NCBI GenBank assembly: GCA_001940845.1
Contig: MSGV01000001.1
Span: 25,975 to 89,974, forward strand
Direction: 5' to 3'
Length of the DNA stretch: 64,000 bases
From: Christensenellaceae bacterium Phil7
GTDB lineage: Bacteria; Bacillota; Clostridia; Christensenellales; CAG-138
Shown: piece after piece, positions 28,998-31,863 of the stretch
Layout of the letters: the number at the start of each line of letters is the position of its first letter
Numbering within the stretch: the stretch's first letter is position 1
Notes under the pieces: generated by a model
What the model was told of the DNA's origin: nothing
Databases searched by the model: none
Seen by the model: the letters and a program-made list of their open reading frames with translations, nothing else
Position numbers and translations under genes: made by a program

Positions 28998-29807
28998 ATG
29001 ATCATGACAATCCACTTCAACGTCCCCGGCAAGAAACGCAAGGAACTTGCCCACACCATCGCAGACTGCATAGGTGTGAAAGCCCAATACATGGGGGCTC
29101 CGAATTTCACCTACGAGATGGATTACTTCACTCTCGACAAGGAAGGCACATTAGAGTATGACTCCGCAGTTGACCGTGAAAGCATCCTCGCTTTACTGAG
29201 CGACTTGACTGCACAGGGATTCGAGTATGACAACACAACAGATGACCGGGATTGCGAATCGCCCGAAGAGCAAAGCGAGACTACTGCTCCTGACAACGAT
29301 GCCGGACTGACAATTTCCGTTCCTCTGGACAAGGTTAAGGTCGGCAACCTCACCAACATTCTGGAAGCAAAGGCCGACCTGATCAAAAAAGCCCTGGGGG
29401 TTAAGAACATCCGCATTATGGTGGATGGGGACAAGGTCAGTTTCCCCTGGTTCGAGGAACTGCCGGATGCGGACACCACCGCAGCCTACAGTACCTCCAT
29501 TTGCAAGCTGTGTGAAATGAGTGTCAACCAGACCCGAATTTCCGCAAAGGCGAAGGACGTGGAAAACGAAAAGTACGCTTTCCGCTGTTTCCTCCTGCGC
29601 CTGGGATTCATTGGGGCCGAGTACAAAGAGGCTCGGAAAATCCTGCTCCGCAACCTTTCCGGCAGCTCCGCATTCAAGAGCGGCGCAAAAGCCTCCGCCG
29701 AACCGACCGAAGAGGTCAGCGATCCTTTCCCGGTCGAGGAAATGGTCGCTGATGCAATTCTCATCCAGGCGGTCAACCAGTCATTCGATGAGGAGGTGGC
29801 AGAATGA
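28998..29807 (+). CDS. Hypothetical cargo protein sharing a C-terminal module with the amidoligase
   Basis: N-terminus [26 protein letters not shown]. The segment [39 protein letters not shown] parallels the amidoligase C-terminus. Confidence 0.6.
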   Translation: [269 protein letters not shown]

Positions 29808-29995
29808 TCGTCTACATCACCAACCTCAAAGAAATCCCCAAAACCTGCATCGACTTTGACTTCGCCTGTAATATCCCTGCCAGTCTTCGCGACCCCGCAA
29901 AAATCCTCAAGCCTTACCTCAAAAAGCGGCATCCCTCATGCCCCCTTCGGGTAGTCAAGGACGAGTGCATCAAGGAGGTGGAGTCATGCAAGTGA
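29804..29995 (+). CDS. Hypothetical small protein
   Basis: 63-aa ORF with SD GAGGAGG, coupled to both neighbours. Confidence 0.45.
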   Translation: MIVYITNLKEIPKTCIDFDFACNIPASLRDPAKILKPYLKKRHPSCPLRVVKDECIKEVESCK

Positions 29996-30210
29996 TTTCC
30001 AGAGCCGCACTCCAGTCCCTCCGTGACCGCTTTCCCAGCGGCACACGGGTGGAGCTGGTACGGATGGACGATCCGCAAGCCCCTCCCATCGGCACAAAAG
30101 GAACCGTACTGGGTGTCGATGACATCGGCAGCATTATGGTTGCCTGGGACAATGGGTGTGGCTTGAATGTAGCTTACGGTGCGGACGAGTGCCGCAAAAT
30201 CAAGCGGTAA
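29986..30210 (+). CDS. DUF4314-like small protein
   Basis: RFPSGTRVELVRMDDPQAPPIGTKGTVLGVDDIGSIMVAWDNG. ATG 29986 follows AGGAGG. Confidence 0.6.
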   Translation: MQVISRAALQSLRDRFPSGTRVELVRMDDPQAPPIGTKGTVLGVDDIGSIMVAWDNGCGLNVAYGADECRKIKR

Positions 30211-30240
30211 ATCGTCATAATATGCACAGTTTGCGGGCAA

Positions 30241-30346
30241 CAAGATCGTGTACTTTATTATCGCAAAACCCCTGGATATAGTACGCTTTTAGAGGTAATA
30301 TGTGTCACGCCGAAAGGAAAACACCACTTTTTAGGAGGCACACACC
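30241..30346 (+). promoter_or_regulatory. Promoter/leader box family, copy 2
   Basis: TGGATA (30273), 17-nt spacer, TAATAT (30296). The whole ~105-nt element is nearly identical to 32084-32188. Confidence 0.55.
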
Positions 30347-31294
30347 ATGAACGAAAAGACCAGAACCCAGATTGAGGAAATGAAAAAGCAGACCATCGGC
30401 GTTGAGGTGGAGATGAACAACATCACGCGCCAGCGGGCTGCAAAGGTAGCCGCCGACTTTTTCGGAACCAACCGCCACCAAAACACCGCCGGACGAAACG
30501 GCTACAGCACTTGGTCGGCTTGGGATAGCCAGGGGCGGGAATGGAAATTCCAAAAGGATGTCAGCATTTCCGGGCCGGATGATGAAAAGTGCGAACTGGT
30601 CACCCCGATCCTCACCTATGCTGACATGAACACACTGCAGGAACTGATTCGCCAGCTTCGACACGCAGGGGCTAAGAGCGATGCCTCCAGAGGGTGCGGT
30701 GTTCACATTCACATCGGAGCGAACGGACATACCGCCCAGACTCTCCGCAACCTCGCCAACATCATGGCAAGCCACGAGCAGCTTTTGGCAGACGCCTTGA
30801 ACCTTGATTCCTACCGCATTAGCCGATACTGCCGCACGGTCGACCCCCGTTTCCTCGACCAGGTCAACCGCAAAAAGCCCACCAGCCTTTCGGCACTTGC
30901 CGATGTATGGTACGGTAGCCAGGGCGAAAACTGGAATCGCAGTGGTCACTACAACGACAGCCGCTACCATATGCTTAACCTCCACGCCACCTTCACCAAA
31001 GGTACAGTCGAGTTTCGACTCTTCCAGTTTGATGCCCCTGCCAACGGAAAGCAAAACGGACTCCATGCGGGACAACTCAAAAGTTACATCCAGCTTTGCC
31101 TCGCACTGAGTCAGATGGCAAAAAGTGTTCGCACCGCCAGCCCCAAGCCCCAGCAGACCGAAAACCCCAAATACGCCATGCGGACTTGGCTCCTTCGCCT
31201 GGGCTTCATTGGTGAGGAGTTCGAAACCGCCAGAGACCTTTTGACCCGCCGCCTTGTCGGAGATGCCGCCTTCAGAAACGGGCGCGCCGCTTGA
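30347..31294 (+). CDS. Amidoligase (GS-like, Amidoligase_2 family)
   Basis: IGVEVEMN...CELVTPIL...GCGVHIHIG...YHMLNLH...GTVEFRLFQ. This is the glutamine-synthetase-like amidoligase pattern as I recall it from PF12224. Confidence 0.75.
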   Translation: [315 protein letters not shown]

Positions 31295-31380
31295 AGGACA
31301 TAGCCACAGGCCCCCTGAACCCGCCTCGGCGGGCTTAAGGTGGTAGAAGGGATACCCCTTCAGAAAGGACGGACAAGACT

Positions 31381-31863
31381 ATGCGTAAAAGATACTACCT
31401 CGCCTATGGGAGCAACCTCAACATCAGCCAAATGCGGTATCGTTGCCCCTCTGCCAGAGTTGTTGGCACGGCAGTCATTGAAAACTACCAGCTTCTTTTC
31501 AAAGGAAGCAAGACCGGCTCATACCTCACCATTGAGCCATGTGAGGGCGACAGCGTTCCCGTGGCGGCTTGGGAAGTCGCTGAGGATGATGAACGCCGCC
31601 TGGATCGGTACGAGGGATTCCCTCATTTTTACTACAAAAAGGAACTGCGCCTTCCGATCACGGGCATCAAGTCCGGCAAGGTGCGGATGCGGGACGCTTT
31701 CGTATACATCATGCACGAGGAACGATCCTGCGGAGTGCCCTCCATGTCGTATCTTCGCACCTGCGATATTGGCTATCTCAACTTTGGCTTCGACCCCTGC
31801 AAGTTGGCTAAGGCATTTGAAGTGAGTCTGAAATTAATGGGAGGATATGTCAATGAAAACTGA
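31381..31863 (+). CDS. Gamma-glutamylcyclotransferase / AIG2-like protein
   Basis: YLAYGSNLN...RCP (YGSNL motif) and LDRYEGFPHFY. Confidence 0.8.
   Translation: MRKRYYLAYGSNLNISQMRYRCPSARVVGTAVIENYQLLFKGSKTGSYLTIEPCEGDSVPVAAWEVAEDDERRLDRYEGFPHFYYKKELRLPITGIKSGKVRMRDAFVYIMHEERSCGVPSMSYLRTCDIGYLNFGFDPCKLAKAFEVSLKLMGGYVNEN

Follow-up and report, generated by a model that had tools for sequence, protein, structure and literature searches.

Gene content of the cluster

The window analyzed here is a 64,000-nucleotide stretch from Christensenellaceae bacterium Phil7 (contig MSGV01000001.1), which contains a prophage of about 50 kb (about 12 to 62 kb) with a guanine-plus-cytosine (GC) content of 0.53 to 0.57, compared with 0.38 to 0.48 in the flanks. 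Our subject is a cluster of forward-strand genes positioned between the two terminase subunit genes of this prophage. The cluster encodes a protein that we call U (28998-29807, +; phrog_2443), a 63-residue open reading frame (ORF; 29804-29995, +), DUF4314 (29938-30210, +; Pfam PF14192), an Amidoligase_2 protein (30347-31294, +; Pfam PF12224), a gamma-glutamylcyclotransferase of the AIG2 type (GGCT; 31381-31863, +; Pfam PF06094), and a Zn-ribbon protein of 69 residues (31847-32056, +; phrog_2945). An earlier sequence-only reading of this DNA had placed the cluster within a phage packaging module. The small terminase subunit TerS (23857-24447, +), the large subunit TerL (33878-35443, +), and the portal protein (36231-37496, +) bear out that placement.

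The protein at 30347-31294 matches the Amidoligase_2 model with an E value of 9.6e-54 (183.3 bits against a cut-off of 22), residues 14 to 254 covering positions 2 to 244 of the 245 in the model. Its motif residues are intact: E20, E22, W66-K67, D71, S73, E83, H120, H122, R160-Y161-C162, R206-Y207, N211, E222, and R224. The family motifs G[IV]E[IVL]E, WK, DxS, ExV[ST]P, GxHxH, RYC, RYxxhN, and ExR are all present in it. They are common to the amidoligases of Bacillus, Arthrobacter, and Porphyromonas phages, at 23 to 27% identity, and invariant in close homologs. The sequence-only reading had named the lack of catalytic residues as an objection to its case; in the alignment with these distant family members, every one of them is there. 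A search for PDB relatives of the amidoligase by sequence found none. We predict that the protein is an intact, ATP-dependent carboxylate-amine ligase resembling glutamine synthetase (GS) and gamma-glutamylcysteine ligase, its chemistry being that expected of the family as a whole. A homolog with 88% identity from Pseudoflavonifractor sp. AF19-9AC (RHR07374.1) carries the name "alpha-L-fucosidase," apparently a misannotation.

The neighboring GGCT matches the Pfam family GGACT (E 1.7e-12, 48.4 bits against a cut-off of 22.8) and phrog_2520 (E 1.2e-48). It retains the YGSNL pocket (residues 9 to 13) and the catalytic glutamate, E78, aligned with YGSNL and LDEQEG of human GGCT (2pn7). The Zn-ribbon protein (CxxC...CxxC) matches phrog_2945 with an E value of 1.6e-23, and all of its Pfam Zn-ribbon matches fall below threshold. 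GS-like amidoligases, with Amidoligase_2 and its Firmicutes Aig2/GGCT neighborhood among them, were reportedly described by Iyer, Abhiman, Burroughs, and Aravind in 2009. The family assignments made in the sequence-only reading for the amidoligase and GGCT hold at the Pfam E values given above, and their adjacency is the known Amidoligase_2 neighborhood.

U as a full-length paralog of the amidoligase

U has no Pfam, NCBIfam, or PADLOC match. It does match phrog_2443, a family labeled "amidoligase enzyme," with an E value of 1.9e-55, and the amidoligase matches the same family with one of 7.2e-113. The sequence-only reading had quoted a 39-residue segment from each of the two proteins, regarded U as otherwise unrelated to the amidoligase, and confined their similarity to about 38 residues. 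The ORFs and both segments are exact, and the segments are identical at 22 of 39 positions. BLASTP of the two window proteins gave an E value of 7e-15, with 29 identities in 62 positions (U 171-232, amidoligase 254-315). The proteins are not unrelated, however, and their similarity is not confined to this segment, which we call the module.

A profile-profile comparison of the U and amidoligase families aligned 118 columns with a probability of 98.7%. When the module was removed and the alignments were shallow, a weak collinear signal remained (E 4e-4 to 7e-3, probability 5 to 53%). The decisive hhalign comparison required the addition of divergent amidoligases and of divergent "long" U proteins, the extra long forms coming from phage IMGVR 517045 and a Christensenellales phage. 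With the module cut from both families, it aligned U 3-184 with amidoligase 17-267 over 163 columns (probability 98.3%, E 1.7e-14).

Individual phages gave the same picture. In a tblastn search of public phages, the window U aligned with the true amidoligase gene of Blautia phage NatCom_24097. By BLASTP the two proteins match with an E value of 1e-16 (U 5-230, amidoligase 8-296), and the alignment takes in the N-terminal strand and helix, where 22 residues of U are set against IEIELPGITRKKAADVIAEYFG. The U-like protein of NatCom_24097 itself matches the amidoligase of the same phage over 208 columns (E 6e-19), including a helical insert that is absent from the window U. A joint alignment of eight amidoligases and six U proteins revealed such "long" U forms in Blautia, Faecalimonas, and Syntrophomonadaceae phages. 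The long forms keep the motif HTxxS[LI]RNLxN[IM]xxSK as well as the helical insert, which marks them as intermediate forms linking the enzyme to the "short" window U. In AlphaFold2 (AF2) models, the order of secondary-structure elements is collinear between U and the amidoligase.

We conclude that these alignments identify U as a full-length paralog of the amidoligase and the region as the site of a gene-duplication pair. The sequence-only reading had held that a shared module implies a common partner, docking site, or substrate. Common descent of U and the amidoligase suffices to explain the shared C terminus, so no common partner need be inferred.

Loss of the catalytic motifs in U

U is laid out as an N lobe (residues 1 to 80), an acidic disordered linker (81 to 100), a C lobe (101 to 185), the module (186 to 231), and a variable acidic tail (232 to 269). 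Its AF2 model has two domains and a predicted local distance difference test (pLDDT) score of 79, falling below 50 in the linker. A profile search of U against PDB sequences returned nothing significant.

We compared the catalytic positions of the amidoligase with U in the alignment. The two metal-binding glutamates of strand 1, E20 and E22, are replaced by H6 and N8. The strand that carries E83 gives way in U to the acidic disordered linker. H120 and H122 of the HxH strand are replaced by T105 and S107, and E222 and R224 of the ExR strand by S148 and P150. The RY..N segment is deleted together with the helical insert. The best-preserved parts of U are its C-terminal lobe and the two-helix extension that follows it. 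By these criteria every catalytic motif has been lost, and U appears to be a homolog of Amidoligase_2 but not a functional member: a pseudoenzyme. Public databases name its homologs "virulence protein," "virulence-related protein," or "hypothetical"; we found no evidence supporting the "virulence" name.

Could U still be an enzyme, with a rebuilt active site and a new chemistry? In favor of this, the replacement positions are highly conserved among U proteins (N8, G103-L104-T105, P109-L110, and F149-P150-W151). These conserved replacements are, however, mostly hydrophobic or structural residues. The GS-like site has lost all of its acidic and histidine ligands for metal and ATP, and both one active-site strand and the RY..N segment are deleted. 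We give a rebuilt enzyme little chance.

Two units across related loci

To place the window among its relatives, we used 161 loci with U: 81 viral loci (80 from a scan of viral contigs plus the phage record L001) and 80 genomic loci from Bacillota genomes, 55 of which reach TerL. DUF4314 lies directly downstream of U in 76 of the 81 viral loci, in 72 of the 80 genomic loci, and in 54 of the 55 that reach TerL. A true amidoligase is much less regular, being found in 31 of the 81 viral loci and in 20 of the 55 genomic loci reaching TerL. Where it occurs, GGCT accompanies it without exception (31/31 viral, 20/20 genomic reaching TerL), and the Zn-ribbon gene nearly so (29/31 and 20/20). The amidoligase, GGCT, and Zn-ribbon genes are absent as a triad from 50 of the 81 viral loci, 44 of which reach TerL. 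U thus stands without an amidoligase in 50/81 viral and 35/55 genomic loci, or about 63%, and the triad is present in about 37%.

We conclude that U and DUF4314 are paired almost constantly in this lineage of phages and that the amidoligase, GGCT, and Zn-ribbon genes form an optional accessory triad. The sequence-only reading had counted DUF4314 and the Zn-ribbon gene as completing one cassette. Both genes are there, but what it took for one cassette is two separable units across loci.

Some phages depart from this order. In phage IMGVR 517045, whose amidoligase has the module, the amidoligase and GGCT genes come first and a U-like ORF follows them downstream. The Christensenellales phage has a module-bearing amidoligase with the U-like ORF on the opposite strand, and GGCT was not found there. 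Faecalibacterium phage FP_Taranis has an amidoligase without a nearby U. Outside the lineage, amidoligase and GGCT are also linked in Bacillus phage 031MP002 (gp40/gp44) and in Arthrobacter phage Waltz (gp94/gp95). Arthrobacter Laroyevirus phages carry, at their right genome end (Waltz 1668-4324), a block of GGACT, amidoligase, and glutamine amidotransferase (GATase) genes that joins both of the neighborhoods, Aig2 and GATase, described for Amidoligase_2. The Waltz amidoligase has an N-terminal extension of about 90 residues.

The U-DUF4314 junction and the tail of U

DUF4314 of the window matches PF14192 with an E value of 1.3e-30 (105.5 bits, the cut-off being 27), and its start is placed at about 29986 by gene callers. 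Across the loci, the conserved N terminus of DUF4314 begins before or at the stop codon of U in 74 of 76 cases, with the two reading frames overlapping, an arrangement that suggests translational coupling. In one form of the junction the tail of U, CAT GAG ATT TCC GAG TAA (HEISE*), is dual coded with the start of DUF4314, C ATG AGA TTT CCG AGT AAA (MRFPSK), as in locus L002 at 2344-2369. In other loci, the tail of U consists of the Shine-Dalgarno sequence GAGGAGGTG with ATGA after it. The serine codon TCC is used in 31 of the 59 distinct U tails listed, which points to a DNA-level constraint from the other reading frame.

The window is atypical in having a longer U tail and an additional ORF of 63 residues between U and DUF4314. 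Its U gene ends (29802-29807) in GAG GAG GTG GCA GAA TGA, which combines a Shine-Dalgarno sequence with an ATGA that overlaps the 63-residue ORF. Gene calls include this ORF on four contigs with an identical U. It has no family match and no homolog in the 81 viral loci, and it may be a lineage-specific insertion or not a real gene.

The tail of U also bears on the idea that U is a substrate or tag of the amidoligase in the manner of Pup, its C-terminal glutamate carboxylate being ligated to a target amine and GGCT acting on the products. PafA, the Pup ligase, is likewise a GS-like carboxylate-amine ligase. Of the 120 closest homologs of U, 105 (88%) end in glutamate, as do 52 of the 79 distinct ORFs taken from viral loci; the typical ending is ...[IV]SE. 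Yet this ending is explained by dual coding with the start of DUF4314, or by the Shine-Dalgarno sequence plus ATGA, and in the 50 viral and 35 genomic loci counted above U has no amidoligase beside it to serve. We think it very unlikely that U is such a tag.

The shared C-terminal module

The module comprises 46 residues in each protein. In U it is encoded at 29553..29690 (+; residues 186 to 231), and in the amidoligase at 31151..31288 (+), past the end of the Pfam model. In the AF2 model of U, it forms two helices (191-202 and 207-217) linked by a GFIG turn, with pLDDT scores of 92 to 95. It is the best-conserved part of U, and a 12-residue stretch of it is invariant across 47 homologs that are 50 to 65% identical overall. 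This invariance argues for an important role. The module might be a structural, oligomerization, or target-docking element of the C-terminal lobe, although this is speculative.

We built a module profile of 46 columns and compared it with 1.84 billion representative proteins. At E ≤ 1e-3 it matched 2531 clusters, of which 1446 also passed E ≤ 1e-10, and the E values went down to 1e-24. The best 150 matches consisted of 100 with a U core, 11 with an amidoligase core, and 39 short fragments, and no third protein family with the module was found among them. This result counts against the worry, raised in the sequence-only reading itself, that the segment might be a common low-complexity helix found in many unrelated proteins. 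The profile matches every Clostridia-phage amidoligase examined (E 1e-18 to 1e-31), and in the FP_Taranis amidoligase the module is degenerate (E 6e-4). It gave no match to the amidoligases of Bacillus, Arthrobacter, and Porphyromonas phages with filters off at E ≤ 10. The module is, on this distribution, a two-helix C-terminal extension specific to one Bacillota-phage clade of Amidoligase_2, which U inherited.

Several matches looked like fusions of the module to SNF2, MurG, Enc34 SSB, or RecG-C fragments. These are truncated genes joined in mid-domain, and we rejected them as probable assembly chimeras. One match of another kind (P0340) consists of an N-terminally truncated U C lobe with its module, followed by a PriCT_1 primase C-terminal domain (E 1.3e-5). 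Its junction, unlike the others, falls after the complete module, and a genuine fusion or a read-through is possible. The LGFIG turn had suggested a helix-hairpin-helix, an idea we discarded when 47 U proteins searched against Pfam at E ≤ 10 matched no family of that kind.

These data allowed us to weigh the proposal of the sequence-only reading that a mobile module of about 38 residues was grafted onto two unrelated proteins as the sign of a shared partner, docking site, or substrate. In favor of this, no other part of either protein is nearly as well conserved as the module, with its 12 residues invariant in U; it lies outside the Pfam Amidoligase_2 model; and direct comparison of the two window proteins is significant in the module region only. 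Adding divergent members, however, reveals homology over the full length, and this homology survives removal of the module. The lack of a third family among the best 150 matches and the chimeric look of the apparent fusions also speak against mobility. Hence, the module appears to be shared by descent, not exchanged between unrelated proteins, and is not a mobile docking module; we find grafting scarcely tenable. Recent recombination or gene conversion between the two genes, same-strand neighbors separated by about 1.3 kb, has next to no chance of explaining the similarity, and neither has a chance likeness of amphipathic helices: the module-coding DNA is only about 59% identical (82/138 positions), as expected of an old similarity maintained at the protein level without recent gene conversion, the two module types (FRCF/KILL and MRTW/D[IL]LT) are distinct in every locus that has both, and the E values of the profile search reach 1e-24.

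Other genes of the packaging region

Between TerS and U, the window encodes an S-adenosylmethionine (SAM) synthetase (24446-25615, +; Pfam), a ParB_N domain fused to an N6/N4 DNA methyltransferase (25605-26861, +; PADLOC MTase_II, E 2.7e-207), and a C5 cytosine DNA methyltransferase (26872-28911, +; Pfam). The SAM synthetase and DNA methyltransferase genes (24446..28911) are kept upstream of U in most related loci. The block of a SAM synthetase followed by the ParB_N-fused N6/N4 methyltransferase is also found in Streptococcus phage Javan630, in Tn6164, and in most loci of "Candidatus Heliusvirales." The C5 methyltransferase is unusually long, at about 680 residues, and its Pfam match is broken into three parts, suggesting that a large insertion or an additional domain separates the catalytic motifs.

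Downstream of the Zn-ribbon gene lies DUF7698 (32186-32551, +; Pfam E 2.1e-51). It occurs in 13 of the 81 viral loci as an occasional neighbor, constant in neither unit. PADLOC-DB defense models gave no match for U, DUF4314, the amidoligase, GGCT, the Zn-ribbon protein, or DUF7698.

The reverse strand between DUF7698 and TerL (32723-33481, -) encodes a regulator of the HxlR family (E 1.7e-30) together with a flavoprotein resembling PNPOx (E 5.8e-9). This stretch is low in GC (0.457), with a near-consensus promoter at 33526-33498 (11 of 12 matches) and a terminator-like hairpin at 32707-32682. The pair looks like an independently transcribed moron inserted in the late operon.

A protein of the phosphoadenosine phosphosulfate (PAPS) reductase fold (35455-36234, +) lies between TerL and the portal protein. 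Its top match is PADLOC SspD (E 2.7e-30), and it also has weak matches to BrxP and DndC; SspD and DndC are members of DNA phosphorothioation systems. The gene was found in only 8 of the 81 related viral loci, at varying positions, and may be another DNA-modification gene of the packaging region.

Interpretation

The overall reading that we favor, and consider probable, is that the cluster holds an amidoligase and its full-length pseudoenzyme paralog U, which share a clade-specific inherited module, that its genes fall into two units, and that the triad would carry out ligase and cyclotransferase chemistry. From what is known of the families, the ligase would, at the expense of ATP, build a gamma-glutamyl-type amide on a target bearing an amine, and the cyclotransferase would then cleave gamma-glutamyl amides to 5-oxoproline and the free amine. 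More speculatively, U, probably in complex with DUF4314, might bind without catalysis a target related to that of the enzyme, and the module could provide a docking or oligomerization surface of the C-terminal lobe. The position of the cluster among SAM synthetase and DNA methyltransferase genes, just before the packaging genes, suggests that its role might lie in DNA or virion preparation or in counter-defense.

Several observations weigh against this reading. The Pfam Amidoligase_2 model detects none of 47 U homologs, even at E ≤ 10. Foldseek comparison of the U model with PDB and BFVD returned nothing below an E value of 8e-3, only generic ACT, KH, and ferredoxin-like folds, so the fold-level link is carried by sequence profiles. 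The AF2 model of the amidoligase is poor, with a pLDDT of 58 that drops below 50 in the C-terminal half and a shallow alignment behind it. Its Foldseek matches are weak, with low TM-scores: GshF (3ln7; probability 0.91, E 3e-3), gamma-glutamylcysteine synthetase (2d33), and GS (8ufj), over a range of E values from 3e-3 to 0.7. The sequence-only reading had said that no function is known, and we too found no paper reporting one; since our literature search found no biochemical function for any Amidoligase_2 member, the proposed ligase chemistry is drawn at the level of the family. U occurs mostly without an amidoligase, and some amidoligase phages have no nearby U; a heteromer of the two is therefore not the general function. 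Finally, the sequencing runs containing the region number four, and none is labeled RNA.

A bolder version, which we regard as unlikely, makes U and DUF4314 a widespread nonenzymatic effector pair derived from the amidoligase. The pair would have kept the target-docking surface of the enzyme, made up of the C-terminal lobe and the invariant two-helix module, and would bind or mask the target of the triad. The triad in turn would covalently modify and de-modify that same macromolecular target, which might be phage DNA before packaging or a host factor in defense or takeover. If true, this would amount to a new system for counter-defense or DNA preparation, in a lineage of gut phages that is very common.

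To return to the pseudoenzyme reading that we favor, U is very common. At least 7998 clusters matched it, every candidate scored in a search of up to 8000. U is present in at least 537 species-representative Bacillota genomes and is common in "Candidatus Heliusvirales." What is new is that a very abundant gut-phage family lacking a Pfam or NCBIfam model can be recognized as a pseudo-amidoligase coupled to DUF4314. This identity gives the U family an evolutionary origin and a fold hypothesis, and it corrects automatic annotations of U as an "amidoligase enzyme." It also divides the region into two units that are experimentally separable. The substrate of Amidoligase_2, a question since 2009, is not revealed by it.

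Comparison with known systems

The arrangement of these genes is not new. Module B of Tn6164 from C. difficile was tabulated in 2012 as HNH, TerS, SAM synthetase, N4/N6 methylase, "virulence-related protein," amidoligase, AIG2/GGCT, and terminase (PMC3485107). Its gene order is that of the window, and its "virulence-related protein" is U. The same order is found in Streptococcus phage Javan630 and in "Candidatus Heliusvirales" phages. "Candidatus Heliusvirales," a viral order defined by TerL phylogeny and nine marker genes, was reported in 82% of people sampled (PMC11283538). Its phages, such as NatCom_991, share synteny with the window and have cassette DNA that is 75 to 77% identical, the comparison covering the cassette only. 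Both of these papers give annotations only, and neither mentions that U is related to the amidoligase, that the two share a module, or that the genes fall into two units (PMC3485107, PMC11283538).

PHROG 2443 had likewise brought U and the amidoligase into one family through the remote-homology clustering of its builders. Its label implies that both are enzymes, whereas U lacks every catalytic motif by alignment. A Pharokka-based survey of C. clostridioforme prophages lists two phrog_2443 ORFs and one GGCT per prophage (PMC11318856). In our search of the literature, we found no paper on U as an inactive paralog, on the module, or on a biochemical function, and none mentioning DUF4314. A study of thymidine hypermodification noted uncharacterized amidoligase and amidotransferase genes beside DNA-modification genes in viral contigs (PMC8989533), neighbors that make a DNA-directed role conceivable.

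Within PF12224, the window amidoligase is a clear member, and it adjoins an AIG2/GGCT gene as the family description states. Its clade differs in adding the two-helix C-terminal extension beyond the Pfam model and in having given rise to the catalytically dead paralog family U, which that model does not detect. GGCT resembles human GGCT (C7orf24) and GGACT in its Pfam GGACT match, its YGSNL pocket, and the aligned catalytic glutamate of LD..EG (2pn7), but it is distant from them, with an E value of 1.2e-3 to PDB sequences.

The closest functional analogy is the PafA/Dop system, in which an enzyme that forms gamma-glutamyl amides is paired with one that removes them. By family assignment, the amidoligase shares the carboxylate-amine ligase fold class of PafA/Dop, gamma-glutamylcysteine ligase, and GS, although without membership in those families at the sequence level. 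No tag protein is identified here, and the dead paralog U is not a deamidase. The eraser in this system would be a cyclotransferase rather than a homolog of the ligase.

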